64,000 bases of DNA from an uncultured Bacteroidales bacterium (GTDB lineage: Bacteria; Bacteroidota; Bacteroidia; Bacteroidales; UBA932). Under the pieces are notes generated by a model. The model searched no databases and was not told where the DNA came from. It saw only the letters and a list, made by a program, of their open reading frames with translations. Of this stretch, positions 11,724 through 63,435 are shown piece by piece; position 1 is the stretch's first letter, and the number at the start of each line of letters is the position of its first letter. Both the position numbers and the translations under genes were made by a program. The DNA lies in assembly GCA_945874155.1 (NCBI GenBank), contig CAMCFO010000003.1, positions 8,581 through 72,580 on the forward strand, read 5' to 3'.

Positions 11724-11795
11724 TGTTAAGTTTTTGTTAACACACTCATTTCCCCAAGAATAATTTTGAATATCAATATTAAATACCGACCTTTG
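11724..11795 (+). promoter_or_regulatory. Cassette-1 promoter with TGTTAA-N5-TGTTAA operator, -33 TTTG and -7 GACCTTTG
   Basis: TGTTAA at 11724 and 11735, TTTG 11765, GAnnTTTG 11788; aligns without gaps to 59732-59803. Confidence 0.75.
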
Positions 11796-11836
11796 CGCGC
11801 TGAAAAGAAAAGGACAACGATAGATCAAAATTGATT

Positions 11837-12058
11837 ATGTTAAGGATGGCATACACCAGTGCTATGTCCGCCTCCGAAATAGTAAATAGGGGGGGGTATG
11901 AGTATGTAGTCCTCATCAGCAATAAACGCCGGTCATTCAGTCCGGCATACAGCCAGGGTGCTGACACCAGAAGTGTCAGTGCCCTTTTTGCGTATGAGCC
12001 AAACCCGTCCCCGGACGGCCCAAAGATACACGGACAAAATTACAATTTTGATAGGTAA
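11837..12058 (+). CDS. Putative leader peptide (73 aa) containing a G8 tract and reading through a terminator
   Basis: A-rich context before ATG; LRM..RGGY..V.L..SPA shared with the ORF at 59851; G8 at 11889-11896. Confidence 0.5.
   Translation: MLRMAYTSAMSASEIVNRGGYEYVVLISNKRRSFSPAYSQGADTRSVSALFAYEPNPSPDGPKIHGQNYNFDR
11956..11989 (+). terminator. Leader terminator/attenuator hairpin, cassette 1
   Basis: GGGTGCTGACAC-cagaa-GTGTCAGTGCCC-TTTTT (12-bp stem with 2 G.U pairs); same stem at 59975. Confidence 0.8.
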
Positions 12059-12075
12059 CACAAGTAGGTAACACA

Positions 12076-12122
12076 AGGGGGTACGTCGATGAGAATCGCC
12101 GGGTGAGTCCGAACAGCCCCCT
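12076..12122 (+). ncRNA. Putative cis-acting structured RNA element (unassigned), cassette 1
   Basis: AGGGGG/CCCCCT closing stem enclosing CGAT-GAGA-ATCG (GNRA loop) and CGGG-TGAG-TCCG hairpins; identical at 60137-60183. Confidence 0.55.
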
Positions 12123-12160
12123 ATTTTTGATTATTGTTGAACAACTAAATAATTAAAACA

Positions 12161-12307
12161 ATGAACAAGAAAACAAAAATTTCAACCTATGAGTCGCCTC
12201 TGGTACTTGAAGAGGTGCTCAACATTGAGCAAGGGTTTGCTCAGAGTTTCGGCGAAGCTGGAAAAGCCGGAGCAAATGGAAGTTATTCATTTGAAGGAGA
12301 TTTTTGA
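12161..12307 (+). CDS. Small 48-aa peptide MNKKTKISTYESPLVLEEVLNIEQGFAQSFGEAGKAGANGSYSFEGDF
   Basis: Translated by hand; strong A-rich initiation context; paralogue at 60222; immediately precedes the lipoprotein. Confidence 0.75.
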   Translation: MNKKTKISTYESPLVLEEVLNIEQGFAQSFGEAGKAGANGSYSFEGDF

Positions 12308-12321
12308 TGGAGGAAAGAGCT

Positions 12322-15300
12322 ATGAAGACAAATTTTAGATTCCTGGCGCTTTCTGCCGCCATACTTTCAATGTTCACCGCCTGCCAGCGCGAAGAACTTG
12401 AGCAGAACCAGAAACCGGAAGCCCTCACCCACAGCGTTACATTTGTGGCTGGTGCTCCTGAAACCAAGACTACCGTAGATATCAGTGATGGTAAGACCGC
12501 TAAGTTTAAGTGGACTAAGGCTGATGAGGGCAGATTTACCGTTTTTGAGAATGGAACTGAAGCAAGAGCGTCTGTTGGTGTTCTTAAGGATGGCAAAATG
12601 ACCATTATTGCAGAATTCGATGGTGATGCCCCTGCTACACCTAAGTATCAAGCATTATACAATTCAGAGGTTAGCGCAAGTCAGAACGTTACTGAAAACT
12701 CTTATGCAGAAGTATCAGATGTGATGGTTTCCAATGTGTTGGATGGTACTCGTGATAATGAGTTCGTTTTCAGCTTCAAGAGAGAGGTTGCATTTGCCAA
12801 GATGACATTGAAGGGCTTGACAAGCGGTGCTCGCGTTTCAAGCGTAACGATTGAATCTGATAAGCCTATTGCAGGTAAATATGATTTGAAGACAGGCACA
12901 TTCGTAAATACTTCAAATGTTATCACTCTTGATGTTTTGACTGATGTTGCTGATGGAAATGCTACGGTATGGTTCACGACTATCCCTGTTGAAGATGCCA
13001 CATTTACTATCACAGCTGAAACAACCAATGATCTTGAGGCTGTTGCAGCTACCTATACAAAAACATTCTCCAAGACCATCACCCTCACCCGTGGCGACGT
13101 GAAGGCCTTCGGCGTTAAGATGAATAAGGATGCGAAAGACCTCTCACTTTCTTTTGATTTTAAGACTCATCCGAGTGGCTGGCCTACATCAAGCGATGCA
13201 GCATCATCTGCAGCTGATTATGTGTATACTTTGAATGGTGTAGATTACAAATTCAGTTGTCCTGCAAAAGCATATTGTGGGGGAACTTCAGAAACTTCAG
13301 GTTATTTGCTTATTCAGTCTTCGACAAGTATGGGCTTGCCTGCTCTTTCAGGGTACAAACTTACAAAGGTAGTCGGGACTTTAAATGATTCAGGCACGCC
13401 ATCAACTTCATCGTCTATCTCTATTACTGATGGAGAGAATGTAGTTTCTGGTGGCACTGCACAAACATGGAGTACCAAGGGGGCCGAATATACATATTCT
13501 TTGACAGACACTGAAGAGAATCAGGTATACTACTTTACTGTCTCCAATAAGAATTGTCAAATGATTAAACTTGTTCTGACATATGAACCTGCGATTGCAA
13601 GAACTAATTTAGCAACCCCAACAAATCTTGCAGTTAGTGCTGAAAAGGTCGTTTCTTGGGATGCAGTTGACGGCGCAGCTTCTTATGTGCTGACTATCGG
13701 AACCGAGGAGTATCCTTGCACAAGCAATTCTTACGATGCTTCTGCCATCGCTGATGAGTATTATGACGTGGCTGTCGTAGCAGTTCCTACCGATACCGAG
13801 AACTACAAGAACTCAGCTGCCGCTACCCTTACCGATGCCAAGTTCGGCACACCGAAACTCGATATTCCTACACTTAAGAAAGGTACTGTTGATGAGTTCT
13901 CTGTAAATGCTACCTGGACAGTTGACTCAAAGGCTACTGCTGGATACAATTGCGAACTCTACAAGGGTGAGACAAAGGTTGGTGACAGCAAGACTGTAAC
14001 TAAAGGATCCGTCACCTTTGATGGTCTCGATGACGGTGTAACCTACACTGTTAAGGTCAATGCAATCGCTGTTGAAGGAACCAAGGCTTATGCAGCGTCC
14101 GCTGTTGCTACAATTGATTTGACAACAACTCCTGCAAGTAAAGTAAGTGATGTTACAGCGGCAGATACATATACTATCAAGAACCTTACAGTATATGCCG
14201 TACCGAACATCAGCCTTGCTATTCTTGGAGATGCTACAGGTTATATTCTTTACTATGTAAAAGGAGGTCATGGATTGTCAGTTGGAAATACTTTGGATGT
14301 AGCTGGTCCAGTTGTGGATTATTATGGATTATGGGAATTCAGTGGGGCAACTGCTTCAAATGTTAAGACTGGTTCTACTCCTGATTATGGAGAACCGGTA
14401 GAGGCAACAAATGAATTTTTGGCCTCTTTTGCGACAAAGCCATTGATAAAGTATATTCATGCTGTTGGCGAACAATCCGGACAAGATATTACTGTCGGAG
14501 AGAATAAGCTTCATTTAAGCGCAGCAAATTCTGCAACAGAGGGAAAGACTGTAAGTGTATATGGTTTCACATATGGATACCATTCTACCAATAAATACGT
14601 TCAGTTTGTCGCAACCTCCATCGCTGAGGACCCTACAGCTCCAAAACTTTCTGTAACTCCTACCTCAAAGACTTGGGCAAGTGAAGAAACCGATGCCGCT
14701 GTTTTCAACGTAACAACCAACACTGAGGGCGAAAACGATTGGTCAGTTTCACCTACCACCCTCGGTTGGGCAACAATCGCTATAGACAAGTCTGCCGGCA
14801 AAATCACTGTTACTCCTAACGATGCTAATACGACAAAAACAGCTCGTGAGGCAACACTCACCGTTACACACTCTGCAGGTACCTTGACTAAGACTATCTC
14901 TCTTAAACAGAGTGCGGCTGGAGCAGTAACAAGTATAGAGTTCTCTCAAACATATTCTTATGGTTTAAAAGATTGGTCATTAACAGAATATACCGACAAA
15001 AGCAGTTATTATCTTGTCCCTTCAGGCACGAATCCTAGTGTTGCAACAATATCAGGTATATTTACAAAGAAGACTATTCAATCTGATGTAGTTATTACAT
15101 TGAATGTCGCAACATTTGGAAGTGGTTTCAATCCTAGTGCACAAACATTCTCTATATATAATGATTCAGGCTGTACAACACCCGTGACTGCGGCTCAATC
15201 TGGTACACTGCCGACAAGCAGTTCATATACAAATGTAGTCTATACGGTTAAAAAAGAGGATGCAACCGCATTAACTTCTAATTTGGCAATTAAGATAACC

Positions 15301-15360
15301 AAACCGGGAAAGCAGATTCGTTTAAAATCAATACAAATCAAATTTAGTTATAGCAATTGA
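12322..15360 (+). CDS. Large surface lipoprotein (fimbrillin-like N-terminus, FN3-like and BACON-like modules)
   Basis: Likely start MKTNFRF at 12322, lipobox FTAC-QREE, ETKTTVD..KWTKAD, LATPTNLAV..VSWDAVDGAASY FN3 pattern, AREATLTVT. Confidence 0.75.
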   Translation: MKTNFRFLALSAAILSMFTACQREELEQNQKPEALTHSVTFVAGAPETKTTVDISDGKTAKFKWTKADEGRFTVFENGTEARASVGVLKDGKMTIIAEFDGDAPATPKYQALYNSEVSASQNVTENSYAEVSDVMVSNVLDGTRDNEFVFSFKREVAFAKMTLKGLTSGARVSSVTIESDKPIAGKYDLKTGTFVNTSNVITLDVLTDVADGNATVWFTTIPVEDATFTITAETTNDLEAVAATYTKTFSKTITLTRGDVKAFGVKMNKDAKDLSLSFDFKTHPSGWPTSSDAASSAADYVYTLNGVDYKFSCPAKAYCGGTSETSGYLLIQSSTSMGLPALSGYKLTKVVGTLNDSGTPSTSSSISITDGENVVSGGTAQTWSTKGAEYTYSLTDTEENQVYYFTVSNKNCQMIKLVLTYEPAIARTNLATPTNLAVSAEKVVSWDAVDGAASYVLTIGTEEYPCTSNSYDASAIADEYYDVAVVAVPTDTENYKNSAAATLTDAKFGTPKLDIPTLKKGTVDEFSVNATWTVDSKATAGYNCELYKGETKVGDSKTVTKGSVTFDGLDDGVTYTVKVNAIAVEGTKAYAASAVATIDLTTTPASKVSDVTAADTYTIKNLTVYAVPNISLAILGDATGYILYYVKGGHGLSVGNTLDVAGPVVDYYGLWEFSGATASNVKTGSTPDYGEPVEATNEFLASFATKPLIKYIHAVGEQSGQDITVGENKLHLSAANSATEGKTVSVYGFTYGYHSTNKYVQFVATSIAEDPTAPKLSVTPTSKTWASEETDAAVFNVTTNTEGENDWSVSPTTLGWATIAIDKSAGKITVTPNDANTTKTAREATLTVTHSAGTLTKTISLKQSAAGAVTSIEFSQTYSYGLKDWSLTEYTDKSSYYLVPSGTNPSVATISGIFTKKTIQSDVVITLNVATFGSGFNPSAQTFSIYNDSGCTTPVTAAQSGTLPTSSSYTNVVYTVKKEDATALTSNLAIKITKPGKQIRLKSIQIKFSYSN

Positions 15361-15390
15361 CTCCAATCCGGCGCCGGGGTGAAGAGCCCA
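15354..15390 (+). other. Conserved cargo-stop element CAATTGACTCC.ATCCG...CGGGGTGAAGAGCCCA, cassette 1
   Basis: Overlaps the TGA stop; same blocks at 63323-63365 although the two coding sequences differ. Confidence 0.7.
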
Positions 15391-15418
15391 AGGCAGTTGT
15401 AAATGCCGTCTAAATTTC

Positions 15419-15465
15419 AAATATCAGTCAGGCAGGGCAAAACTGTCTGACTGATATTTATTTTG
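15419..15465 (+). terminator. Intrinsic terminator after cassette 1
   Basis: AAATATCAGTCAGGCAG-ggcaaaa-CTGTCTGACTGATATTT then T-rich. Confidence 0.85.
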
Positions 15466-15553
15466 CCAAAGAGTTTGTCAAGGGATATATTACCGTTAAG
15501 ATGAATTAACATTGACTCAGCAGACTCGACCGGCAGTACAAACCCATAAAAAC

Positions 15554-15592
15554 AAGTTTGACAGCAACTCCCAACCAGTTGCTGTCAAACTT
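15554..15592 (-). terminator. Perfect 16-bp hairpin, probable terminator of the Rpn gene
   Basis: AAGTTTGACAGCAACT-N7-AGTTGCTGTCAAACTT. Confidence 0.7.
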
Positions 15593-15686
15593 AATTTTTA
15601 TAATCCAAAGAATTGAACTCCGGTCAAAGCCGGACGTGACGCGTTCCATTCCGTGCACTATTGTGCAGGTTATTTTTGGAGGATTA

Positions 15687-16601
15687 CTAAAGCGCTTCAA
15701 TAGTCTCGATAGACAATCCCGTACATTTGGCAATTAGTTCCAACGGGACTCCATTGCATTTGAAGTTTTTAGCTGTCTCAATGCGTCCCTCTTCGCGTCC
15801 CTCTTCGCGTCCCTCCTCGCGTCCTTCGAGCCGTTCCTGTTTGAGTTCCCATCTATAGTCCAGTTCTGTTTTCATATCCATTTCGTAATTTTCAAGTTTC
15901 TCTTGTGAAAAACCGGCAATCCAACTGGCCTCCACAACGTCTTTAATAAGTGGCACATCTTCAAGAGCTTCAGGTATAGACTCATAGGACCAGCTGTACT
16001 TGAACCAGTAGAACAGGAAGTCTCTTCGTGTCTTACATTCTGAAAGTTCGAGCTTGAAACGTGGCAGTTGTGCGAAGATACACAAAATGGTAGAAGGAGC
16101 AAAAATTTTTGTGGATTCTTCAACCATAGTGTACTTTGTGATAATCTTGGAAGAATCAATGCCAGCCTTGTTTTCAAAGTCCAGGGTAAAGTCCAGAAAA
16201 CTGACGATATAGACAGGATGGAGTTTGTCGTAGTCTTCACCTTTCAGAATGGATCTGGAATAGAATCCGGAAGCATAGTAAATGCACCTTTCAAAGAAGA
16301 CAACATCTTTCTTGCACTGAATTTCAACATCAAAGGTCCTCAAATCATCACTGACACAGACAAGGTCAAGGACAGATTTCTTGCTATAGGCAGTCTTGAC
16401 TATCTGTTCCCTGTCCAGATACTTGATGATGTCTTTGATCTGCGCATTCTCAGGCAGGATTTCATTCAATAGTTCAATTAAGAGGCTCTTGTTGTTTATG
16501 TCAGCAAAGACTGCCTTGAAGCCCGGGTCCTGACGCAGGTCAACAAAAATTTGTTTGTTGACCAATTGTTTTGTTTGGCTGTTTGTTTTCATGGTCGACA
16601 T
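15687..16601 (-). CDS. Rpn family recombination-promoting nuclease / PD-(D/E)XK putative transposase
   Basis: DPGFKAVF, LDLVC..DVEIQ..FFERCIYY, PVYIVSFLDF, C-terminal EGREEGREEG..IETAKN..IAKCTGLS; start chosen at MSTMK (ORF track extends to 16697). Confidence 0.9.
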   Translation of the reverse strand: MSTMKTNSQTKQLVNKQIFVDLRQDPGFKAVFADINNKSLLIELLNEILPENAQIKDIIKYLDREQIVKTAYSKKSVLDLVCVSDDLRTFDVEIQCKKDVVFFERCIYYASGFYSRSILKGEDYDKLHPVYIVSFLDFTLDFENKAGIDSSKIITKYTMVEESTKIFAPSTILCIFAQLPRFKLELSECKTRRDFLFYWFKYSWSYESIPEALEDVPLIKDVVEASWIAGFSQEKLENYEMDMKTELDYRWELKQERLEGREEGREEGREEGRIETAKNFKCNGVPLELIAKCTGLSIETIEAL

Positions 16602-16881
16602 TTTTGTTTTTAAAATCGAACCACAAACATATATACAAAAATTTGGGAAAAGCGCAATTGATAAAAAAGTGATGTCGATTTTTTCTTTTTTAATCAAGTC
16701 ATTATAAAAAATTCAGGCAATATCACTTTTCCATCAAAAATAATGTGTCAAAATTTTCAACAGATTTATTTATCACTCAAAAATTTGTCACTTTTTTATA
16801 AGAAATTTTCATACCATTCGTCGGGAATAGCCCCCTCGGCCGGAGCCGTATGTGGAGTTTTGCATAATATTTCATATCTTT

Positions 16882-16926
16882 GCCGCCGGACTAAAACCGC
16901 AAAGCCGCCGGACTAAAACTGCAAAG
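16882..16926 (+). repeat. 22-bp tandem duplication just after a -7 promoter element
   Basis: GCCGCCGGACTAAAAC(C/T)GCAAA twice, following TATCTTTG at 16875-16882. Confidence 0.75.
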
Positions 16927-16951
16927 TCACTGTAAAATAACCACAAAGATT

Positions 16952-17788: not shown

Positions 17789-17790
17789 CC

Positions 17791-19263: not shown

Positions 19264-19383
19264 AATAAATTTTAATGAAATGTTGCAATGGAGCAATAAT
19301 TTGTTTACGAATTAACGTTTTTATTGCGGAAAATCAAAATTTTTCTTTCATTTGCAGACAGGTATTCATAAACCGCCATTCTT

Positions 19384-27983: not shown

Positions 27984-30900
27984 ATGAGAATCAAGACTAT
28001 ATTCACATCTCTGCTGACAGTTTCCCTGCTCATTTCCTGTACCGCTGAAAAGCCTGCGGCAGAAAAGGAGATCTCCTACGAGCAGTTGCGCAGCAAAATC
28101 GCCGGAGCCTGGCTGGGACAGATGGTCGGCAATATCTACGGACTCGAATATGAAAACAAATTCATAGAAGAACCCGGGGAAGGGCCTTTTGTCTGGAACA
28201 AGGCTATGCGCAAAATGACGGCAGTGGACGGGGCTTTCTCCGATGACGATACCGATGTGGAGTATATGTACTTGATAATGATGGAGAAGAACGGAGTGCG
28301 CCCTACCTACGCCCAGATGCGCGAATGTTGGATGTACCATATCCGGGACAGGGTGTGGCTGGCCAACAGGGCAGCTCTGGGAGCAATGCACTACGGTCTC
28401 ACTCCGCCTTTCACCGGGTCTGTGGACAACAATCCGCACTGGTTCCAGATTGACCCGCAGCTCATAAATGAAATCTGGGCCTACACGGCTCCAGGAATGG
28501 TGGACTATGCGGCAGGCATATCCGAATGGGCGGCAAGGGTCACCAGCGACTCCTGGGCCACTTCCCCGACCGTGGTCTATGGAGCTATGTATGCGGGTGC
28601 TTTCTTCGAGTCCGACATACGCCGCCTTATGGAAGATGCCCTGAGGTGCCTCCCGCGCGACGACCGCTTTGCACAGACCGTGCGCGAGTGCATAAAACTG
28701 TATGATGCAGACCCGAAGGACTGGCACGCAGCCCGCGCCTATATAGAAAAGAAATATTACGAAGAGGAGGACTCATTCTCCAGGACCATCTGGAATGCCA
28801 ACTTGAACGGAGCTATGGGTATGCTTGCCCTGCTCTATGGGGAAGGCGACATTGAGAAGACCCTGAACATAGGTTGCGCCCTCGGATTCGACGCCGACAA
28901 CCAGACTGCCACCACCTGCGGCATCCTCGGAGTCATCAACGGAGGCGAGTCTGTGCCTACAGCCTGGTCTATGCCATTCGCACACTGGACCAAGCCTTTC
29001 AATGACAGGTACATAAATGTGACCCGCTACGACCTGCCTGACGCATCCATAGAGGACATCATCGACAGGACCGTGGACATAGCCGTGAAGGTGGTAGAAG
29101 AGAACGGCGGACGCACGGAAATTCGTGACGGACAGAAGTGGCTGGTAATCAACACCGCCGCCAAGTTCAACGCACCTTTGGAATTCTGCGTTGGACCCGC
29201 TCCGAGACTGGTGGCGGGGGAGAAGGCCGATTACGACTTCGCCTGCGTGACCAACAGGGGATACGATTGGAAGATGGTGGACGGATGCCTTCCGGAAGGT
29301 CTGAAATTCAGCAAAGGTAAACTTACGGGAGTGCCTCTCAAGGCCGGCAGAAGCCAGATCAGACTCGCCATTTCGGACGGCAAACAGAGCTTGGAGAAGG
29401 ATTTCGAGCTTGTCGTTAGGGGCAGGAACCTTGCCCGTAGCGGCAGAATAGTCTCCAGCGTGAGCGAAACCAATTTCGAGGTGCTGGATTCCTGCTGGCT
29501 CACCAATTCCCGCGACTGGTACGCACGCAGCGTGGAAGTAATCAACGACGGAGTGCTCACGGGCCCCAATTCGGTCTTCTGCACCCTCCAGTCCAAATCC
29601 CTGGAGCCTCGTCGCGACTGGTTCGGCTATGTCTGGGATACTCCGCAGAAATTTGACAAAGTGGCCTTCCGCTACGGTCCTCTCGAGGAATTCGGAGGAT
29701 GGTACAGCCGTATGCAGGTGGAGATTATGGATGAGGAAGGCAACTGGATTCCGGTCAAGACCAGCGTGAGTCCCGCTCTTCCTTCAAGCGACCTGGTGTT
29801 CATTCAGCCGCACAACGCCGAGTTCCTTTTCAGCTTCCCGGCTGTTCAGAGCAGGGGAGTGAGGGTCATAGGAGACGACCACGTGGAGCATCACTGGCAC
29901 AAATACACCAAGCACGTTTCCTCTTTCATCAACGTGGCAGAGGTCGAGGTCTATGAGGCTGCGCAACCTGACAAGTGCATCACTATGTCCAAGGCAGTTC
30001 TGAGGGACAAAATCGAAGGCGGATGGGCAGGCCAGACCATAGGTGTGGTCTATGGTGCACCGACAGAATTCAAGCACCAGGGCACGCTCATTCCCGATTC
30101 CCAGCCCATTTCCTGGGGAGAAGGCTATGTGAAACACTGGTGGGACCGCAAGCCTGGACTATTCGACGACATCTACAACGACCTCACCTTCGCAGAGGCT
30201 TTCGATCAGTTGGGACTGGACTGCAGCGCTGCGGACCTTGCCCTGCGTTTTGCCACTGCGGACTACCACCTTGCCCACGCCAATCAGGCAGGCCGTTACA
30301 ATGTGCGTCAGGGAGTGATGCCTCCTGCATCTGGACATTGGCTCAATAACCCCCACGCCGATGACCTGGACTTTCAGATTGAGGCTGATTTCATAGGACT
30401 AATGGCTCCGGGTATGCTTCCGAGGGCACTTGAGATAGCCGACACCGTAGGACATATAATGAACAGCGGGGACGGTTTTTACGGCGGTGCCTTCGTGGCA
30501 GGCTTGTATTCAGCTGCCTTCATACTTGACTCTCCTGCAGCCATCCTCGATGCTGCACTTGCCGGCATCCCTGCACAAAGCACTTTCTATCAATGCATTG
30601 ACGATGTTCGCAAGTTCCACGCGAAATATCCTTCCGACTGGAAACAATGCTGGTTCGAAATCGAGAAGAAATGGGGCGCGGACACCGGATGCCCTAAGGG
30701 CGTATTCCTGAGTTTCGACATAGATGCCAAGCTCAATTCCGCCTATGTGGCAATAGGACTGCTTTACGGCGGAGGGGACTTTGCCAAATCTATGGAAATT
30801 GCCACACGCTGCGGTCAGGACTCGGACTGCAATCCGGCCACAGTGGGCGGAGTCCTCGGAGTGATGTACGGCAAGAGCAATATTCCGGAGTTTTGGAAAC

Positions 30901-31516: not shown

Positions 31517-33034
31517 ATGAAGTCACGCAATTACATATTTACCCTTCTCTTACTTGCAGGATGTTCCGGCAGCGGGATACGCTATGGTGAGCAGGTCACC
31601 TTGTCCCGCGAGGTCCTGGAAGACAAGGTGCGCGGAGGCTGGTTCGCCCAGACCATAGGATGCACCTACGGCGGTCCGACAGAGTTCAAATTCAAGGGAG
31701 GTCTGATGCAGGATGAGCAGACCATTCCGTGGAGCGAAGATTATATCTATGAAACCTTCATCGCGGACCCGGGACTTTATGACGATGTCTATATGGACCT
31801 GACCTTCCTCGAAGTGATGGCGGAGTATGGCATCGACGCCCCTGTGGACATTTATGCCGACCGTTTCGCAAATGCAGATTACAAACTCTGGCACGCGAAC
31901 CAGGCTGCACGCTACAATATCCTCAACGGAATCTATCCTCCCGAGTCCGGACATTGGATGCACAATCCCCACGCGGACGACATAGATTTCCAGATTGAAG
32001 CCGATTTCATAGGTATGCTCTGGCCGGGAATGCCGGACTGCGCAGCACTCACTTGCGACGGTATAGGACATATAATGAACTATGGTGACGGCTATTACGG
32101 AGGGGTTTATGTTTCGGCACTCTACTCCCTTGCATATGTCTGCGACGACATCCCGACTCTTGTGAAGGAAGCTCTTGAAACCATTCCCCGTGGCAGCAAG
32201 TTCCGCAACTGCATAGAGGACGTGATCCGTTTCCACGGAGAGTACCCCGGGGACTGGAAGCGCTGCTGGTTCGAAGTGGACAAATTGCACAGTTTCGACA
32301 TCGGGTGCCCGGAGGGGGTGTGGAACGGTTTCAATATAGATGCTGTGATCAATGCGGCATACATAGTGATAGGGCTGCTCTACGGAGAGGGCGATTTTGA
32401 AAAGACTATGGAAATATCCACCCGCTGTGGTCAGGATTCGGACTGCAATCCGGCTTCCGCAGCAGGCATACTCGGAGTGATGCAGGGCTATTCGGCAATT
32501 CCGGAAAAATACCGCAAGGCTGCCGAGAAAATTGCCGACCTGCCTTTCCCTTACACCAGCCTCAGTCTGAACGAAACCTGTGTGAAGAATATGCAGCTGC
32601 TTGAACAGGCCCTGCTCTCCCAAGGATGTGAGTTTGGCCCGGAGGCTGTGTCCTTCGTGGTGCGCAAACCTGAGCCCGTGGCTTGGGAACAGTCATTCGA
32701 AGGCTTGGTGCCGGTGGACAAGGTGGTGCTCAAGAAGCGTTTCAATTCCTCGGTCGTGCTTGAGTTTACGGGCAACTCCATAGTGGTGGAGGGCAGCGTG
32801 GTCAAGACCGGGCACAGTGACGAGGACTATGTGGCAAGGATTGCGGCCCTGCTCGACGACGAGGTAGTGGAGGTTTTCGCAATGCCTTACGACTATATCA
32901 AACGCAAATATGAAATTTTCTCCAGATACTGTTTTCCTTCCGGCCAGCACAAGCTTGAACTGAGGCTTCTGAATCCTCACCCGGATTTTGAAATCAATGC
33001 CCAGGAAATGGTGGTTTACGATGCTGTTAAATGA
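31517..33034 (+). CDS. ADP-ribosylglycohydrolase-family lipoprotein
   Basis: Lipobox LAGC; AQTIGCTYG, DDVYMDL, HADDIDFQIEADF, GQDSDCN; paralogous to the C-terminal half of the preceding gene. Confidence 0.85.
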   Translation: MKSRNYIFTLLLLAGCSGSGIRYGEQVTLSREVLEDKVRGGWFAQTIGCTYGGPTEFKFKGGLMQDEQTIPWSEDYIYETFIADPGLYDDVYMDLTFLEVMAEYGIDAPVDIYADRFANADYKLWHANQAARYNILNGIYPPESGHWMHNPHADDIDFQIEADFIGMLWPGMPDCAALTCDGIGHIMNYGDGYYGGVYVSALYSLAYVCDDIPTLVKEALETIPRGSKFRNCIEDVIRFHGEYPGDWKRCWFEVDKLHSFDIGCPEGVWNGFNIDAVINAAYIVIGLLYGEGDFEKTMEISTRCGQDSDCNPASAAGILGVMQGYSAIPEKYRKAAEKIADLPFPYTSLSLNETCVKNMQLLEQALLSQGCEFGPEAVSFVVRKPEPVAWEQSFEGLVPVDKVVLKKRFNSSVVLEFTGNSIVVEGSVVKTGHSDEDYVARIAALLDDEVVEVFAMPYDYIKRKYEIFSRYCFPSGQHKLELRLLNPHPDFEINAQEMVVYDAVK

Positions 33035-39477: not shown

Positions 39478-39552
39478 AGTAATCCTCAAAAAATAACCTG
39501 CATCATCTTTGAAAATCTTTTCGGTCCATATTTCCTCCCTCATCAGTCACAT
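39478..39552 (+). repeat. 75-bp dispersed intergenic repeat, copy A
   Basis: 74/75 identical to the reverse complement of 51055-51129. Confidence 0.9.
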
Positions 39553-39695
39553 AGCTACGGCTATGCTCCTTCTTCGGGTGAAAATCTGGCCTCGAAAATC
39601 TAATTCAAATCTGAGGCAACTTATTATTTTCATATTACTGAAGGAAATATTTTTCTATCTTTGTAGGCTATGTCTTTTGATGACTTGACCCGTTT

Positions 39696-50920: not shown

Positions 50921-51054
50921 AGTTTATGTTTACGTCAGTGGCTAGTCTGTGCTTTTCCGAAAGCATTGCAAACTTACTAATTAAAATGGACAATGCCTAT
51001 TTTCCACCGATGATTTTTCATCATATTGTCGGGCTATAAAGAATCGCCAGGGCA

Positions 51055-51129
51055 ATGTGACTGATGAGGGAGGAAATATGGACCGAAAAGATTTTCAAAG
51101 ATGATGCAGTTTATTTTTTGAGGATTACT
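51055..51129 (-). repeat. 75-bp dispersed intergenic repeat, copy B
   Basis: Reverse complement of 39478-39552 with one mismatch; abuts the stop codon of the 51129 gene. Confidence 0.9.
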
Positions 51130-58020: not shown

Positions 58021-58022
58021 AT

Positions 58023-59237
58023 TCATACATTTTTGGCGGCCCGGCTTGAAGGAGCCAAAGTCACAAGCCATCCTATCAGGGCGACACTGGCGCAAACCAG
58101 GGCGACGTCTGCCCATTGCAGTATTACCGGATATGCGCTCACCAGAAAGCCTCCGGGCATCTTTACGATTCCGAATTGCTCCTGAATCATCACTACTGCA
58201 ATGCCCACTGCCGCCCCTATGACAAGCCCCACAAGGGTGATGAGCCAGCCTTCAAGACGGAAGATCCTGCGTATCAGCGCGTTGTTGGCACCCATAGACT
58301 TGAGCGTGAATATGTCTTCTCGCTTTTCTATGGTAAGCATAGTCAGGTTGCCGTACACATTCAGCGAAATCACCAGTACCATGAAGATGAGTATCAGGTA
58401 GATGGCTGCCTTTTCGTATCTCATCATCTTGTACAGCGACTCGTTCTGCATATACCTGTCCTTCACCACGAAGTCTTTCCCCAGCCCTTCGCTGACCTTC
58501 TGCCGGACCTCAACCGCATCCCTTGCGCTCAAGCCCTCGATGAACCGTATTTCCACAGCAGACACTTCGTCTTTCAGGTCAAGCAACTCCCTCATAGTCT
58601 CCACGGGCACCAGAACCAGCCTTTCATCCACCTCGCTGTTGATGCGGAAAATACCTGAGGGCCAAACTTTTACGCTCTCAAGCGAGGCTGCGGGATTGAT
58701 GGTTGAAAATTTCCTTGTGCGGGACGGATACCAGATTTCCATAGGGGTCACAAAGGCCGGATTGGCTTCAAGTCGGTGGGCGAGGGCAGTCCCCAGACAG
58801 GCGAGTGGGACGCTGCCGCGGTGCAACTTGAATTCGCCTCTGACTATTTTGTCCTCCACTCTGGCCTCCTGCTCATAGATTTCATCCACACCCCTGACTG
58901 TGGCTGTGGCCTGCTGTTTTCCGTAGGAGATGAATACCGTTTCCTCCAATATGCAACACAGGCTTGCAACTCGCTCGTCATTGTAGAGAGAGTCGTAGAT
59001 TTTCCCCTCGGGCACAAAATACTTTCCTGAGGCGGGAGTGACCAGCAGGTCGGGCTCGATGGAACTCATAGTCGAAGTGACTATGCTGTCGAATCCGTTA
59101 TATACGGACAGGACTATTATCAGCGCAGCGGTGCCCACGGCCATCCCGCAGGCACTGATTGCAGAAATGATGTTGATGACATTCTGCTTTTTCCTGGCGA
59201 AGAGATACCGCCACGCTATTTTCAGTCCTATGCCCAT
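58023..59237 (-). CDS. LolC/E-family (FtsX/MacB-type) ABC permease
   Basis: IAWRYLF, SVYNGF, KREDIFTLKSMGA..IRRIF..EG. Confidence 0.88.
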   Translation of the reverse strand: MGIGLKIAWRYLFARKKQNVINIISAISACGMAVGTAALIIVLSVYNGFDSIVTSTMSSIEPDLLVTPASGKYFVPEGKIYDSLYNDERVASLCCILEETVFISYGKQQATATVRGVDEIYEQEARVEDKIVRGEFKLHRGSVPLACLGTALAHRLEANPAFVTPMEIWYPSRTRKFSTINPAASLESVKVWPSGIFRINSEVDERLVLVPVETMRELLDLKDEVSAVEIRFIEGLSARDAVEVRQKVSEGLGKDFVVKDRYMQNESLYKMMRYEKAAIYLILIFMVLVISLNVYGNLTMLTIEKREDIFTLKSMGANNALIRRIFRLEGWLITLVGLVIGAAVGIAVVMIQEQFGIVKMPGGFLVSAYPVILQWADVALVCASVALIGWLVTLAPSSRAAKNV

Positions 59238-59590
59238 TATTTTTTGAGCAGTTCGTCTATGTGTTCCACGTAGTCGAGGCTGGAGTCGAGGAAGAAGATG
59301 ATTTCAGGCACGATGCGCAGTTGCTTGCCCATAGCCCGTCCGAGTTCGCCCCTAAGTGCTCTGACATTTTCCTTGAGCCTGCCCATCACCGCGTCTGCCT
59401 TTGCGGAAGGGAAGATGCTCACGTAGATTTTTGCCACGGAGAGGTCCGAGCTGATTTTCACTCCGCTGACGCTCACCAAGGCCCCGTCAAATGCGGCCAT
59501 CCCTTTGCTGCGGATAATCTCTGCCATTTCCCTTTGGATTTCCCTCGCCACCTTCAACTGGCGGGTGCTTTCTGCTGTATTGTTTTCCAT
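59237..59590 (-). CDS. rbfA: Ribosome-binding factor A
   Basis: RQLKVAREIQ, DLSVAKIYVS, LRIVPEIIFFLDSSL. Confidence 0.94.
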   Translation of the reverse strand: MENNTAESTRQLKVAREIQREMAEIIRSKGMAAFDGALVSVSGVKISSDLSVAKIYVSIFPSAKADAVMGRLKENVRALRGELGRAMGKQLRIVPEIIFFLDSSLDYVEHIDELLKK

Positions 59591-59731
59591 ATTTTGTTCT
59601 GTTTTTACCTCATCCCCGACCAGTACGGGGAGTCGTTCCAGTGAATAGACAACATTCCCCGCAAAAATAAGTAAATTTTACGGGGAAATGAAATCTTAAT
59701 CAGCTTTGCTGCTTCTTTGTCAAAGGCCCGC

Positions 59732-59803
59732 TGTTAAGATTTTGTTAATAGGGGCAAAAATCATAGAATAATTTTGAATATATGTTTTAAATGTCGAAAT
59801 TTG
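59732..59803 (+). promoter_or_regulatory. Cassette-2 promoter with TGTTAA-N5-TGTTAA operator, -33 TTTG and -7 GAAATTTG
   Basis: TGTTAA at 59732 and 59743, TTTG 59773, GAnnTTTG 59796; constant 48008-bp offset from the cassette-1 elements. Confidence 0.75.
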
Positions 59804-59850
59804 CGGGCTGAAAGAGAAGTCCTGGGATTCCCGGGCAAAGGCAATTGAAA

Positions 59851-60018
59851 ATGAATAATTTGAGAATGAACAGTAATGCGTTGACTCCCAACGGTTTGAG
59901 GGGGGGGTATTATTGCGTCATTCTGAATGAGTTTGACAGTCCGGCTGCATTAGCAGTTGACAAGTATATACAGCGGGTGCTGACACCAAAAGTGTCAGTG
60001 CCCTTTTTTCGTATGTAG
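59851..60018 (+). CDS. Putative leader peptide (55 aa) containing a G8 tract and reading through a terminator
   Basis: MNNLRMNSNALTPNGLRGGYYCVILNEFDSPAALAVDKYIQRVLTPKVSVPFFRM; G8 at 59900-59907. Confidence 0.5.
   Translation: MNNLRMNSNALTPNGLRGGYYCVILNEFDSPAALAVDKYIQRVLTPKVSVPFFRM
59975..60009 (+). terminator. Leader terminator/attenuator hairpin, cassette 2
   Basis: GGGTGCTGACAC-caaaa-GTGTCAGTGCCC-TTTTTT. Confidence 0.8.
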
Positions 60019-60136
60019 TGTTTTGCAGCGGATTGCGTATGTGGTGTTTTGCAGCTGAACTTTGAATTGCAGGCACTCCGCTTTGATTGAGAATTGAGAT
60101 AAACGGACAACATAATCAATTTTGATAGGTAACACG

Positions 60137-60183
60137 AGGGGGTACGTCGATGAGAATCGCCGGGTGAGTCCGAACAGCCCCCT
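60137..60183 (+). ncRNA. Putative cis-acting structured RNA element (unassigned), cassette 2
   Basis: Identical to 12076-12122. Confidence 0.55.
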
Positions 60184-60221
60184 TCTTTTGATTATTGTTG
60201 AACAACTAAATAATTAAAACA

Positions 60222-60377
60222 ATGAACAAGAAAACAAAAATTTCAACCTATGAGTCGCCTCTGGTACTTGAAGAGGTGCTCCACATTGAGCAGGGGTTTG
60301 CTCAGAGTAACTTCGGCGAAGCAAATGAGGCCGGATCAGAACTTACTGAAAATAAGGATTATTCGTATGACCTTTAA
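60222..60377 (+). CDS. Small 51-aa peptide MNKKTKISTYESPLVLEEVLHIEQGFAQSNFGEANEAGSELTENKDYSYDL
   Basis: Hand translation; 28 of the first 29 residues identical to the 12161 peptide. Confidence 0.75.
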   Translation: MNKKTKISTYESPLVLEEVLHIEQGFAQSNFGEANEAGSELTENKDYSYDL

Positions 60378-60389
60378 TCTTATGCTGCT

Positions 60390-63329
60390 ATGAAAAATTT
60401 CTTGATTAAATCTGCAGCATTGGCTGCGTTGACCGTAATCTCTGCGGTTTCTTGTACAAAAGAACAAAATGTGGACGCATCTGTTTCTCAACCAGAATTG
60501 CACTTTATCATAAAGACTGCGGAGAATACTCCTGTAAAGTCCTTTATTTATAATAATCTTGACGGAACATATACTCCGAAGTGGACCAATGGAGACGAAC
60601 TTGCAATCTTCATCGGAACTATTTCTGACAAGACATCTTCCACTACAGCTACGTTATCGAATACAACTGAAACCGGAACGACTGCAAAATTTGAAGGAAC
60701 AGTTCCTACTGGCCTGACAGAAGGCACGTTCCTTTCTTTCAGCCCTGCCGATGCATTTGAGAAAGGATACACAGATGGTACAGTAGGTATAAATTTGTCA
60801 GAGATTCAATCTCCAAGCAGTCTGACCATTGATGAGGCATGCGATGTGTTGGTAGCAAGGCCTTGTGATTATACGGCGGAGAATGGGACTGTAGCAATCA
60901 AGGACTTGTATTTCAAACGAATCTTCTCAATTGTAAAGGTAAATCTCAAAGGCGTAGATGCTCTCAATAGCGAAAAAGTGACTTCGTTCACTCTTAGTGC
61001 ACCTGCAACCCTTACAGGTAGTGCTGCTGTGGATCTCTCTACCGCAAGCATTTCCCAGTGGAATACGAAAAATGAGTCTGTTGTTGCAAATTATACGAAA
61101 GATAATCCTGTATTTGGAGGAGAGGAAGGTTTGGAGAATACTGTATGGCTTGTTGTAAATCCTACCACTGTCGCCTCAGGTTCTGTAGTTACTTTCTCTG
61201 GGGAGACCGATAACTACACATTCTCTAAAGAGGTCACCCTTTCAAAGGATTTAGTTTTCCCTCAGAGCCAGATGGCGGTAATCAATCTTACCATAGGGGA
61301 AGGCAATTATACAGCAAAGACTGCTGAGACCAGAATCTTTGTGGAGGGATTTGATAATGTTGAAACTAAAGAAACTCAACTTCAGCCTTCTGTAACAGGT
61401 GCATCAGGCACGGGTGTGACGGAAGCACTTGCCTATACATATAGTAGTAAGAATACTAATTTGCGTTTTAATAACAATGGTCATTCAAGCACCAATCCAT
61501 ATCTGTATCTTTCGGGTGCAAATGACAATCTGATTATCAGCAACATAAAGATTAGTGGTGAGACGGCATTGAAATTCTCATATCAGGCAAAGACTAATTC
61601 GGGTTCAGCTACTATTACAATCAACTACAAGGAGAGTTCTTCTGATGTTTGGACGAAAGTTGGAACATCTACTGCTGAGACTGGGACATTTGATACGGTT
61701 AACGCCAATGTTTTTAATGTAAGTTCAGAGGCGACTTCTATAGATATTCAGATTGTAGGAAGTGCCGCTGCTCTTGTTGATGACCTTGTTTTGGAATCAT
61801 TCGTTGACACCCGAACCACGCTTTCTACTCCTGCAAACGTATCTGCAAGTGTGGATTCTGAAACCCCTAACAAGGTGAATGTTTCTTGGGGTTCCGTTGA
61901 GAATGCTTCCGGATATGAGGTTGTTCTCAGCTCTGAAGGAAAAGAGGACATTGTTAAGACATCAAGCACTTCTCCTCTTGCAGTTTCAGGCCTTGATTAT
62001 TCTACAACATATTCAGTTAAGGTAAAGGCTACAACTACAGATGTTGAGAACTATATTGAGTCTGAATACTCGGCAGCAGTTTCTGTGACTACTGAAGACA
62101 AGCCGGTAGGAGCAGCCGAGTGGGTGTCTACTTCTTTTGCAAATCTTAAGGCTGGAGATAAGGTTGTTATTGTCAGAAAAAGTGGTACTACCTACGCTAT
62201 GACTAATGGTAATGGTACAAGTAAAGCTCCAACTGCAAAATCTGTAACTGTTACTGGAGATAAGTTAGAAAAAATTCCAGAAAGCGATATCGTATGGTAT
62301 GTCGGAGTAAATGAGTCTAACAAGATATTCTATACATCCAGCGAAATGACGTCTTGGTTGTATTGCACGTCAACCAATAACGGTGTTAGAGTCGGCACCA
62401 ATACTAATAAGACATTTACTTATACTAACAATTATTTACAGCATGTTGGTACTTCGAGATATCTTGGAGTTTACAATAATGCAGATTGGAGGTGCTATAC
62501 TGCTTATGACGCAGAAAATATCAAGGATCAAACTTTCGGCTTCTTTGTTGAACAGTCCGGCTCTTCCGCAGGCGGTTCTGATCCTGTGAAACTGGCTACT
62601 CCTTCAGTGAGTTGCACAGCCAAGACTGCGACCAGCCTTACCTTCTCTTGGGCTGCAGTTGCCAATGCAAGTGGTTATCAGGTGAGCACAGACGGTGGCA
62701 AGTCTTATGGCTCTACACAGACCGAAACCAGCTACACCTGGACAGACCTTCAAGCCAACACTTCTCATACTCTGTATGTCAAAGCCATCGGTGACGGCAC
62801 CAACTACACAGACTCCGATGCTGCAACAGCCACTGGAACTACCACTTCTGGCGGTTCTACTGGTGGAGAACCAACTGTATTATACACATTGGATGCGACT
62901 GGTACTTTACAAGGAACAAATAACAGCTATACTGGCAATTGCGATATTAAATCTGACGGTATAACCTGGAATGTTACCGGTAATACCCAAATTAATCCTT
63001 GGAGAATGGGTGGTAAGTCAATTACAAATGTGGATAGGGCTGCTTATACTAAAACAGCATTCTCTAAAGCGTTAACTTCAATTGATGTAACATTTGGGGA
63101 AGCCTCTTCGATAAAAGTCAATTCTTGCAAGATTGTTTATTCGACTTCTGCTGATTTCAGCAACAGTAAGGAGGCCGTAGGAAAATTTGCAGCTAGTTCT
63201 ACTGTTAAGTTTGAAGCAGATTATCCGGCAAATTGTTATTATAAATTAATACTTAATGTAAGCGTTTCTAGCTCTAAGAGTAATGGATATGTTCAATTGT
63301 CAAAGATTGAATTCATTGGAAACAATTGA
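60390..63329 (+). CDS. Large surface lipoprotein (fimbrillin-like N-terminus, FN3-like modules)
   Basis: Lipobox AVSC-TKE, VKSF..KWTNGDEL, LSTPANV..VSWGSVENASGYEV and LATPSV..FSWAAVANASGYQV FN3 patterns. Confidence 0.75.
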   Translation: MKNFLIKSAALAALTVISAVSCTKEQNVDASVSQPELHFIIKTAENTPVKSFIYNNLDGTYTPKWTNGDELAIFIGTISDKTSSTTATLSNTTETGTTAKFEGTVPTGLTEGTFLSFSPADAFEKGYTDGTVGINLSEIQSPSSLTIDEACDVLVARPCDYTAENGTVAIKDLYFKRIFSIVKVNLKGVDALNSEKVTSFTLSAPATLTGSAAVDLSTASISQWNTKNESVVANYTKDNPVFGGEEGLENTVWLVVNPTTVASGSVVTFSGETDNYTFSKEVTLSKDLVFPQSQMAVINLTIGEGNYTAKTAETRIFVEGFDNVETKETQLQPSVTGASGTGVTEALAYTYSSKNTNLRFNNNGHSSTNPYLYLSGANDNLIISNIKISGETALKFSYQAKTNSGSATITINYKESSSDVWTKVGTSTAETGTFDTVNANVFNVSSEATSIDIQIVGSAAALVDDLVLESFVDTRTTLSTPANVSASVDSETPNKVNVSWGSVENASGYEVVLSSEGKEDIVKTSSTSPLAVSGLDYSTTYSVKVKATTTDVENYIESEYSAAVSVTTEDKPVGAAEWVSTSFANLKAGDKVVIVRKSGTTYAMTNGNGTSKAPTAKSVTVTGDKLEKIPESDIVWYVGVNESNKIFYTSSEMTSWLYCTSTNNGVRVGTNTNKTFTYTNNYLQHVGTSRYLGVYNNADWRCYTAYDAENIKDQTFGFFVEQSGSSAGGSDPVKLATPSVSCTAKTATSLTFSWAAVANASGYQVSTDGGKSYGSTQTETSYTWTDLQANTSHTLYVKAIGDGTNYTDSDAATATGTTTSGGSTGGEPTVLYTLDATGTLQGTNNSYTGNCDIKSDGITWNVTGNTQINPWRMGGKSITNVDRAAYTKTAFSKALTSIDVTFGEASSIKVNSCKIVYSTSADFSNSKEAVGKFAASSTVKFEADYPANCYYKLILNVSVSSSKSNGYVQLSKIEFIGNN

Positions 63330-63365
63330 CTCCCATCCGTCGGTGGCGACGGGGTGAAGAGCCCA
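63323..63365 (+). other. Conserved cargo-stop element, cassette 2
   Basis: CAATTGACTCCCATCCG..CGGGGTGAAGAGCCCA, matches 15354-15390. Confidence 0.7.
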
Positions 63366-63393
63366 CAGCAACAGTAACAACCGACGGAGCAAT

Positions 63394-63435
63394 GAATAAG
63401 AGCCAGACAGGGTCGCCCCTGTCTGGCTCTTATTC
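63394..63435 (+). terminator. Perfect 19-bp hairpin after cassette 2
   Basis: GAATAAGAGCCAGACAGGG-tcgc-CCCTGTCTGGCTCTTATTC. Confidence 0.8.

Follow-up and report, generated by a model that had tools for sequence, protein, structure and literature searches.

Bacteria are known to vary their surface loci by allelic replacement, as in the fimA and ragAB types of Porphyromonas gingivalis and the pneumococcal capsule loci, by gene conversion (pilE/pilS of Neisseria, vlsE of Borrelia), by invertible promoters (the upxY/upxZ capsular loci of Bacteroides fragilis) and by contingency loci (Haemophilus, Neisseria, Campylobacter); leader-peptide attenuation (trp, his) and stop-codon read-through (the A1 protein of phage Qbeta, gag-pol of murine leukaemia virus, and the UGA-C plus stem-loop of alphaviruses and plant viruses) are known as well. 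We analysed a stretch of 64,000 nucleotides (nt) from an uncultured Bacteroidales bacterium (the window; positions 8581-72580 of the contig here called C3), in which two loci, A and B, carry unlike lipoprotein genes (the cargo) between similar flanks. They belong to a family of four paralogous copies, and we consider it likely that cargo is exchanged between the conserved flanks by homologous recombination or gene conversion, under a regulation that we predict from the 5' flank.

The genome assembly comprises 2.59 Mb (48.8% GC, 97.8% complete); locus D lies on another of its contigs, C4. Contigs numbered L007 to L043 are from metagenome assemblies, and all contigs used for comparison derive from short-read assemblies. 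The host is probably a Candidatus Cryptobacteroides species from animal gut; the genus is suggested by one named homologue of the N-terminal domain (N-domain) of the cargo, which comes from Candidatus Cryptobacteroides. The sample names of several of the metagenomes point, in our own reading of these names, to pig and poultry gut studies.

Two loci with a common layout

Loci A (11724-15461) and B (59732-63437), which we compared by a repeat search and pairwise alignments, show an identical order of components separated by unalignable spacers: operator and promoter, a leader open reading frame (ORF) with a G8 tract, a terminator, a 47-nt element, a small ORF, the lipoprotein gene and a structured TGA element. 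A preliminary description of the window had listed these components for both loci, and all of them are present, in place or a few bases off, including the conserved element at the cargo stop and the shared terminator hairpin (15420-15458; 63395-63434). The largest shared block (183 nt, 97% identical; 12065-12247 versus 60126-60308) takes in 29 codons from the start of the small ORF as well as the 47-nt element, indeed identical between the loci (47 of 47 positions; 12076-12122 versus 60137-60183). Other shared blocks cover the terminator (41 nt, 95%), the promoter (49 nt, 82%) and the sequence after the cargo stop (33 nt, 82%). The parts, with protein lengths in amino acids (aa) and stem lengths in base pairs (bp), are as follows.

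11724-11797, plus strand: predicted promoter P1 of locus A, with the operator at 11724-11739, a -33 box TTTG at 11765-11768 and a -7-like box GACCTTTG at 11788-11795
59732-59805, plus strand: predicted promoter P1 of locus B, with the operator at 59732-59747, the -33 box at 59773-59776 and the -7-like box at 59796-59803
11765-11797 and 59773-59805: Bacteroidetes-type -33/-7 boxes of the two loci
11837-12058, plus strand: leader ORF of locus A, 73 aa from its ATG, with G8 at 11889-11896; it passes through the terminator
59851-60018, plus strand: leader ORF of locus B, 55 aa, with G8 at 59900-59907; it crosses the terminator at 59975-60009
11956-11989, plus strand: terminator-like hairpin of locus A, a stem of 12-13 bp followed by T5, 95% identical to the copy at 59975-60015
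12043-12122, plus strand: P2-like box CAATTTTG (12043-12050) and 47-nt element (12076-12122) of locus A
60117-60183, plus strand: P2-like box and 47-nt element (60137-60183) of locus B, identical to the locus A copy
12161-12307, plus strand: small ORF of locus A, 48 aa, starting MNKKTKISTYESPLVLEEVLNIEQGFAQS
60222-60377, plus strand: small ORF of locus B, 51 aa; its first 29 residues equal those of locus A save one, and its tail differs
12322-15360, plus strand: cargo of locus A, a 1012-aa lipoprotein with the lipobox LSMFTAC
60390-63329, plus strand: cargo of locus B, a 979-aa lipoprotein with the lipobox ISAVSC and two FN3 domains (Pfam fn3, 7.3e-10)
15358-15461, plus strand: 3' element of locus A, with the TGA, an internally deleted remnant of hairpins H1 and H2, and the long hairpin H3 plus T-run at 15420-15458
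63327-63437, plus strand: 3' element of locus B, with the in-frame TGA, H1, H2 and a 19-bp H3; the long hairpin lies at 63395-63434

Unlike cargo at one chromosomal site

Contigs of the same species, with flanks of about 98% identity, hold different cargo at the same site, which indicates that cargo is exchanged between strains at one chromosomal site. Contig L036 (62.9 kb) matches the window at 97.9% identity on both sides of locus B, along 6.5 kb of upstream sequence (relA-gidB-sigma-polA-lolE-rbfA) and 5.9 kb of downstream sequence, and between window positions 60308 and about 64104 it encodes a 667-aa lipoprotein instead of the B-type cargo of 979 aa; the N-domain of this lipoprotein is of the locus A type, with 89.7% nucleotide identity to 12024-13130. 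Three other contigs (L016, L017 and L018) show the upstream (rbfA) flank of locus B at 95-96% identity, followed by a cargo of 723 or 955 aa with an N-domain of the locus D type, and all three N-domain types are found at one chromosomal site within one species. A 645-aa cargo adjoins the downstream flank of locus B in L008 and a B-type flank in L010, and the identical 645-aa cargo of L008 recurs behind the upstream flank of locus A (96.8%) in L009; in L037, an orthologue of locus A, the allele encodes 1031 aa. In none of the strain contigs examined have loci A and B themselves moved to another chromosomal position.

The cargos range from 630 to 1031 aa, differ in domain content and cannot be aligned past the N-domain, whereas the flanks are 95-98% identical within the species. 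The mosaicism is nested: N-domains that are 64-88% identical are joined to unrelated C-termini, and the N-domain of locus B, e.g., is 77-88% identical to those of 630-716-aa alleles with an unrelated remainder. The small ORF follows a similar pattern, its 43 near relatives in metagenome assemblies having nearly the same 29-residue N-terminus and several different C-terminal tails. The interchangeable cargo proposed in the preliminary description is thus borne out, with orthologous copies of locus B holding A-, B- or D-type cargo in strains with 95-98% identical flanks, rather than the same cargo in all strains (L036, L016-L018), and with four copies in the genome rather than only the two in view (C and D lie beyond the window). 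Literature searches gave no description of such a locus type, in agreement with the earlier designation as an undescribed family. Many copies with different cargo, in the genome and in its relatives, had been named as what would support the idea; a DNA search found the further copies in the genome, but the 5' core in none of 40 related genomes, and the 5' core is therefore species-specific.

In a multiple alignment, the left-hand breaks between alleles are of three kinds: at the 3' end of the 47-nt element, where the small-ORF haplotypes MNKKTKIST.. and MKAKTKTSF.. split; in the middle of the small ORF after ..EQGFAQS (locus A versus locus B); and after the N-domain. The right-hand break falls at the stop codon in some comparisons, and in L036 it lies beyond the 3' element, in the region next to the downstream nuclease gene (Rpn, see below). 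Because the break points vary within conserved blocks and no tyrosine integrase is linked, homologous recombination or gene conversion is favoured over site-specific cassette exchange. Both had been offered as mechanisms in the preliminary description; the former is retained, and the latter is disfavoured by breaks at three places and by the lack of a linked tyrosine recombinase. The loop of the 47-nt element reads UGAG in loci A and B only, all 16 metagenomic copies, with both flank types, having UGGG; this private variant, although confined to one site, points to concerted evolution of the two loci.

Further copies and the convergent Rpn nuclease genes

A BLAST search of the genome with the shared scaffold revealed two more copies outside the window, giving four in all. 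Locus C (C3:104267-104698) consists of operator, promoter, a G9 tract, terminator and 47-nt element joined to the middle of a decayed Endonuclease_NS gene, and in locus D (C4, minus strand) the same promoter precedes another leader, a related small ORF and the gene for a lipoprotein of 727 aa. Where 1.5 occurrences of the operator pattern TGTTAA-N5-TGTTA would be expected, the genome has six; four of these are loci A-D, to which the pattern is essentially confined, and the resemblance greatly exceeds what chance would produce. An alignment of the four loci places the operator of P1 at a fixed spacing from the -33/-7 boxes.

Each locus is adjoined by a further gene, in the window the following one.

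15687-16697, minus strand: Rpn-family PD-(D/E)XK nuclease gene, convergent to locus A, with EGRE four-residue repeats

This gene matches TIGR01784 (1.5e-28; 100.4 bits against a cut-off of 52.1) and PF12784 (PDDEXK_2; 6.9e-38). The genome contains five Rpn-family genes, four of which lie downstream of, and convergent to, loci A-D. The paralogous unit extends from the operator to about 100 nt past the Rpn promoter and has sharp ends on both sides. RpnA and RpnB are 97% identical at the DNA level (B with an internal deletion), RpnC and RpnD 99%, and this near-identity likewise points to concerted evolution. The number of EGRE repeats varies among the copies, such C-terminal four-residue repeats having been described for RpnL/RpnS (PMC10400941). 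The earlier statement that the window holds no recombinase stands as far as tyrosine recombinases are concerned, since none (PF00589) is encoded on contig C3, but it missed the Rpn nuclease gene. The five matches to PF00589 in the whole genome all lie away from locus D and on contigs other than C3; no separate search was made for serine recombinases.

Rpn proteins of Escherichia coli promote RecA-independent recombination (PMC5350276), and the family has since been described as toxin-antitoxin phage-defence modules (RpnL/RpnS) that are not autonomously mobile, although the genes spread horizontally as single-gene clusters (PMC10400941). It is possible that Rpn starts the exchange events. The association persists in another Cryptobacteroides species, with a different geometry: in L038 (6328-6612) a C-terminal Rpn remnant with (G/E)REE repeats lies directly upstream of a homologous small-ORF/lipoprotein locus, in the same orientation.

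A dispersed repeat of about 125 nt, present in at least 25 copies of 97-99% identity in the genome, occurs in the window at 39478-39600 and 51010-51129 (reverse strand), and also at C3:105334-105456, where it separates the remnant of locus C from the Rpn gene of that locus. The initial ~27 nt of the repeat (GTAATCCTCAAAAAATAACCTGCATC..) recur at the Rpn stop codons of loci A and D, and the repeat may represent a miniature element that arose from the ends of Rpn genes or targets them.

Proposed mechanism and alternatives

We propose that each unit comprises two convergent transcription units, one running from P1 and the operator through the leader and the ORF of about 50 aa to the lipoprotein gene, the other being the Rpn-type nuclease gene. 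Homologous recombination or gene conversion would replace mainly the C-terminal Ig/FN3/BACON modules of the lipoprotein, together with the N-domain type and the small-ORF tail, and would do so at one site between strains as well as among paralogous loci. A 5' block (the P2-like box, the 47-nt element and the small-ORF N-terminus or the N-domain) and a 3' block (the UGA-hairpin element and the Rpn region) would provide the homology arms. The flanks would have stayed alike partly through function, the 3' element being conserved across species with covariation, and partly through homogenisation within the genome, as the private A/B variant and the 97% identity of RpnA and RpnB suggest.

Several points weigh against this reading. 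The contigs compared are short-read assemblies in which the conserved blocks are repeats, where chimeric joins can arise, and L009 and other short contigs could contain such joins; this is improbable for L036, because its transitions from cargo to flank fall where loci A and B have no similar sequence. Differences in homopolymer length between assemblies, on which the switch discussed below depends, can be sequencing errors. Two independent junctions, that between the type I and type II small-ORF haplotypes and that of the locus C deletion, end at the 3' end of the 47-nt element, and their coincidence could hint at a preferred break site.

The last point leads to the alternative that survives best, a dedicated cassette exchange in which the 47-nt and stop-codon elements would be recombination sites cut by a specific enzyme, e.g., the Rpn nuclease. 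With four of the five Rpn genes adjoining the four loci, sharp unit ends, two junctions exactly at one boundary of the 47-nt element and the RecA-independent recombination promoted by the E. coli proteins (PMC5350276), such a system has points in its favour, but other breaks fall midway through the small ORF or behind the N-domain, the 3' crossover of L036 lies beyond the 3' element, species devoid of the 5' scaffold keep that element with a conserved RNA structure and a coding role that account for it, Rpn proteins count today as non-autonomous toxin-antitoxin phage defence (PMC10400941), and no tyrosine integrase (PF00589) is linked; we regard it as unlikely. Still less probable is a mobile element comprising the whole unit from P1 to Rpn, which would insert at new sites with different cargo. 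The sharp common ends of the four copies, the horizontal movement of Rpn genes as single-gene clusters (PMC10400941) and the dispersed repeat that begins with the 27 nt found at Rpn stop codons would fit such an element; however, the unit ends showed neither terminal inverted repeats nor target duplications, no empty site came to light, and A and B keep their chromosomal positions in all strain contigs examined. Rapid divergence of the cargo by point mutation and diversifying selection after a simple segmental duplication, with flanks held by purifying selection and no exchange, would suit the functional elements in the flanks (promoter, terminator, 3' RNA structure) and the diverged spacers between them, but is very improbable, being already contradicted by the comparison of orthologous loci (cargos that differ in length and domains and cannot be aligned past the N-domain between flanks of 95-98% identity, and all three N-domain types at one site) and by the private A/B variant.

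An in-frame UGA element at the cargo stop

The preliminary description had treated the conserved 3' scaffold as a cassette border. It consists instead of an in-frame UGA, hairpins and the first codons of a nuclease extension that is intact in relatives; the species itself has intact alleles (L016, L017), whose sequence past the TGA leads into an FN3-Endonuclease_NS gene. When 150 other species of the genus were searched with a covariance model (R1), 19 had the element, in most cases as a single copy per genome, and it is kept in species without the 5' scaffold (the 47-nt element), so that a pairing between the 5' and 3' ends need not be invoked. The 3' elements of loci A and B score 82.9 and 133.7 bits with this model and fold with z values of -4.6 and -7.1, respectively. 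In at least 17 congeners no stop interrupts the frame before the TGA over the 493-501 aa back to the start of the fetched locus, and past the TGA this same frame runs on for another 285-540 aa, with Endonuclease_NS in 10 of 10 extensions scanned (E 1e-34 to 1e-46). The peptide after the TGA includes a conserved Gly-rich linker, ..S-G-G-G-A-G-G-E-E-P-T-A-T-V-T-T.. leading into ..S-T-G-A-T-L-S-G-S-Y.., the frame is preserved through several indels, and most species have no ATG there. No signal peptide follows the TGA, and a secreted-type nuclease made alone would need one. Codon-position entropy after the TGA showed no clear third-position excess, so the coding argument rests on frame preservation and peptide conservation.

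The RNA structure is conserved as well. H1 (CCGNCGG-loop-CGN'CGG; CCGUCGG-UGG-CGACGG in locus B) starts 7 nt after the UGA and is paired in 20 of 20 sequences, one of its pairs being UA in nine, GC in eight, CG in two and GU in one of them despite the changed encoded residues. H3, a stem of 15 bp with a GNRA-like loop, overlaps the first codons of the FN3 domain and has double changes in nine pairs. None of 500 shuffles reached the observed level of covariation, and G-U pairs make the structure strand-specific. A long-range pairing of CCGUCGG with a downstream CCGACGG, which appeared in the first RNAalifold consensus, was replaced by the local H1, which is 100% paired and covaries.

Programmed read-through, for which examples are reviewed in PMC7026636, is suggested as the most economical reading of a conserved UGA, an open frame and a covarying hairpin together. 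The element might be a signal at which a fraction of ribosomes would read on and extend the surface lipoprotein with the Gly-rich linker, FN3 domain(s) and a non-specific nuclease, giving two isoforms of one gene in many Cryptobacteroides species, a possibility that we advance tentatively and stop a little short of calling probable. Alternatives to read-through are a conserved split gene with unconventional initiation and a dependence on a foreign suppressor tRNA; that the nuclease isoform depends on suppressor tRNAs from TGA-recoded phages appears highly improbable. Literature searches yielded no description of read-through in Bacteroidota. Two other explanations of the codon were rejected. 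Reassignment of UGA conflicts with the use of TGA as an ordinary stop codon in this genome, where it ends 434 of 1105 long ORFs, and with the lack of a tRNA with a UCA anticodon; for selenocysteine, none of the 36 tRNAs found by ARAGORN is a Sec tRNA, and the best selB match (188.6 bits) stays below the cut-off of 242. Gene callers split off the FN3-Endonuclease_NS part or miss its start at L016:10335-11565, in L042 and L043 and at about 17 congeneric loci, the frame being continuous save for one TGA.

In the window the 3' element is a decayed remnant of this module of UGA, linker, FN3 and nuclease. Locus B, and also locus D, has G4 in the linker instead of the G5 of most alleles (63352-63356; C4:~12395), which shifts the frame so that the extension stops after about 50 codons, a difference that could reflect simple decay or a second slippery site; the element of locus A lacks an internal segment. 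In alleles that have lost the nuclease, H3 is extended to a perfect palindrome of 19-21 bp in two compensatory ways (AAGAGCC..GGCUCUU or AUCAGUC..GGCUGAU) and U-rich sequence follows, and the extended hairpin probably serves as a terminator. We suppose that the stop-codon element was the start of a read-through extension that decayed at loci A and B, the long hairpin now acting as terminator; counting the poly-G attenuator described next, a recombining cargo would then be framed by two devices for recoding or phase switching.

The 5' control region

The predicted promoter function of P1 follows the Bacteroidetes promoter consensus with its -33/-7 boxes. Downstream of it, the terminator hairpin folds at -27.6 kcal/mol (z -4.3), with a stem of 12-13 bp and then T5-T6, and is overlapped by the leader ORF. 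The poly-G tract within this ORF has eight residues in loci A and B and nine in locus C, and among near-identical contigs seven have G8, five G9 and one G6; nine of the 15 copies scored thus have G8, loci A and B included. In an in silico frame check, only G8 keeps the leader ORF, read from its first ATG, open across the terminator, whereas with G6, G7, G9 or G10 it stops 1-9 codons past the tract and at least 45 nt before the hairpin. The leader peptides of A and B share the pattern ..LRM..RGGY(Y/E)(C/Y)V(I/V)L, which is also found in locus C if its tract is read as G8. As the ORFs of A and B overlap the hairpin in different frames, the act of translation, and not the peptide, would matter.

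The tract has the length (at least 7) and the length polymorphism expected of a homopolymer in a simple-sequence contingency locus, and a GC-rich stem with a U run overlapped by a leader ORF, whose translation is predicted, matches the layout of an intrinsic terminator or attenuator. A homopolymer-switched attenuator is thus supported in silico: slipped-strand changes of the tract would act as an ON/OFF switch, in which only G8 would let ribosomes cross the terminator and so prevent termination. The conserved box CAATTTTG just upstream of the 47-nt element could be a second promoter (P2). The block of P2 box and 47-nt element is nearly invariant in loci A, B and C and in 16 metagenome copies, only two loop positions varying (GAGA/GUGA and UGAG/UGGG). 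The 47-nt element had been called structured; it shows no stem covariation, its predicted fold is no better than that of shuffled sequences (z -1.6), and it is absent from 40 related genomes. Rfam gave no credible family in the whole window at the gathering threshold or in a permissive scan of 11600-12400. A repeat search found no inverted repeats around the promoters (11700-12100 and 59700-60200), the sole pair in the window being the dispersed repeat (39478/51040).

The leader of locus D (C4:14759-15019, minus strand) has an interrupted G tract (GGGTGGGG), and its ORF runs through direct and hairpin repeats (ATTGCCGGCCCCGACCGGCAAT and three GTCATTGCCGGCCC units) in place of the terminator of loci A and B. 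This leader may be a fixed-ON variant.

The small ORF and the lipoproteins

The small ORF ends a few bases ahead of the lipoprotein start, and we suggest that the two are probably translationally coupled. At least nine paralogues occur in the genome, each directly upstream of a large lipoprotein gene, and copies also precede homologous lipoproteins in other species. One paralogue in the window belongs to a distant module.

5448-8136, plus strand: distant two-gene module without the shared scaffold, with a small ORF at 5448-5633 (..AYNSP..) and an 827-aa lipoprotein at 5653-8136

The family motif is (I/L)Y-E/Q/N-S/A/T-P, followed by ..E-Q/E-G-F-A.. and an acidic tail ending in an aromatic residue. 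The tail co-varies with the cargo type, which may reflect a physical partnership or mere linkage. No match was found in Pfam or NCBIfam, a back-translation scan of species-representative genomes gave no relatives, and a whole-library search with a profile returned only 22 cluster representatives at E <= 0.001. The ORF of about 50 aa is a real, new family, which is narrow or rarely called.

The cargos of loci A and B are about 25% identical and can be aligned over the first ~300 aa only. Pfam detects fn3 in both and BACON in A, the fn3 and BACON matches of A being weak. The locus A protein starts with a conserved two-sandwich N-domain of about 270 aa, followed by FN3, BACON-like and other beta-sandwich modules, and more than 400 homologues of this domain (in proteins of 605-1125 aa) carry many different sets of Ig-like, BACON, Big, Flg_new and FN3 modules. 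A full-length AlphaFold model (mean predicted local distance difference test score, pLDDT, 72; above 85 for residues 430-860) shows a chain of beta sandwiches matching FN3/Ig arrays, and Foldseek with it retrieved generic FN3/Ig strings, while a PDB sequence search with the cargo proteins gave only marginal FN3 matches. The N-domain model (pLDDT 63) has two sandwiches, with a glycosidase sandwich domain as its best Foldseek match in the PDB (E 8e-4) and no type V pilin among the top matches. Of the architecture in the preliminary description the FN3 modules are confirmed by Pfam; the fimbrillin-like head (FimA/Mfa) was dropped, as neither Pfam nor NCBIfam gave a match to it and the N-domain model, whose quality limits the comparison of folds, pointed to nothing specific. 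Bacteroidetes lipoproteins have known export signals, and the lipobox together with the K/E-rich residues after the cysteine argues for surface exposure; the label surface antigen or adhesin, which goes back to the lipobox and the Ig/FN3 architecture, is putative.

Neighbouring genes

Two paralogous AAA_14/DUF4143 ATPase genes (8248-9636 and 10152-11489, both minus strand) lie directly upstream of locus A; in contig L007 an rve-family insertion sequence and conjugative-transposon genes (PcfJ/PcfK) are found upstream of the locus A scaffold instead. Elsewhere in the window, 30448-30872 and 32064-32488 are 72-83% identical stretches, 1616 bp apart, in adjacent genes of a cluster resembling polysaccharide-utilisation loci, and this gene pair resembles tandem paralogues.

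Comparison with known systems

The loci show how surface proteins may diversify in an uncultured but abundant Bacteroidales lineage of the livestock gut, one scaffold being reused at several loci as homology arms, and they offer a set of defined elements: the operator, the poly-G leader ORF with its terminator, the 47-nt element, a new family of ~50-aa ORFs and the UGA-hairpin element. The tight pairing with Rpn ties a phage-defence gene family to a hypervariable surface locus and suggests phage pressure as a driver of the variation. The Rpn genes resemble described Rpn (YhgA-like) toxin-antitoxin nucleases in the PDDEXK_2/TIGR01784 domain, the variable EGRE repeats, the several diverged and partly decayed copies and the absence of transposon ends, but here four of five copies are convergent to one family of surface-lipoprotein operons, an association not reported in PMC5350276 or PMC10400941.

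Unlike integron and shufflon cassette systems, the loci have no linked tyrosine recombinase (PF00589; the serine type was not searched separately) and no fixed crossover core site. They share with the phase-variable capsular loci of Bacteroides fragilis a conserved 5' module with small genes ahead of diverse cargo, as Bacteroidales surface loci, but here the candidate switch is a poly-G tract in a leader ORF, the promoters have no flanking inverted repeats, no tyrosine-type invertase (PF00589) is linked, and the small ORF, having no Pfam match, is unrelated to UpxY/UpxZ. In the contingency loci of Haemophilus, Neisseria and Campylobacter the likeness lies in a tract, here G8, that is length-polymorphic among near-identical strains. 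With trp and his leader-peptide attenuation the loci would have in common that translation of a leader ORF across the terminator decides on read-through; in classical attenuation, however, a stalled ribosome selects an antiterminator, whereas here the ribosome would simply occupy the terminator. We know of no described case of a slippery tract inside the leader ORF of an attenuator.

The candidate stop-codon read-through agrees with that of viruses and phages in its conserved in-frame UGA, often followed by C, a covarying hairpin 7 nt downstream and a long open frame without a start, but it concerns a cellular gene of Bacteroidota that joins a surface lipoprotein to an FN3-nuclease, is predicted from sequence and has decayed in the window. 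If true, it would rank among the rare cases from bacterial cells and would have clear support from comparison between species, and annotations of split or truncated genes would need to be changed.

Mosaic surface genes built from related copies that share conserved segments are likewise found in the gene conversion systems pilE/pilS of Neisseria and vlsE of Borrelia. These switch at high frequency at a single expression site with silent, promoterless cassettes, whereas in our case all four copies have their own P1 and leader, and the variation is known from contig comparison only. The allelic replacement of fimA, ragAB and capsule loci, finally, has in common with the loci described here highly diverged alleles at one site, conserved flanks and homologous recombination as the inferred process. 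Here, however, several paralogous copies share their flanks within one genome, so that exchange between loci is also possible, the flank, a regulatory leader of several parts, extends into a small ORF, and the cargo is itself a nested mosaic.

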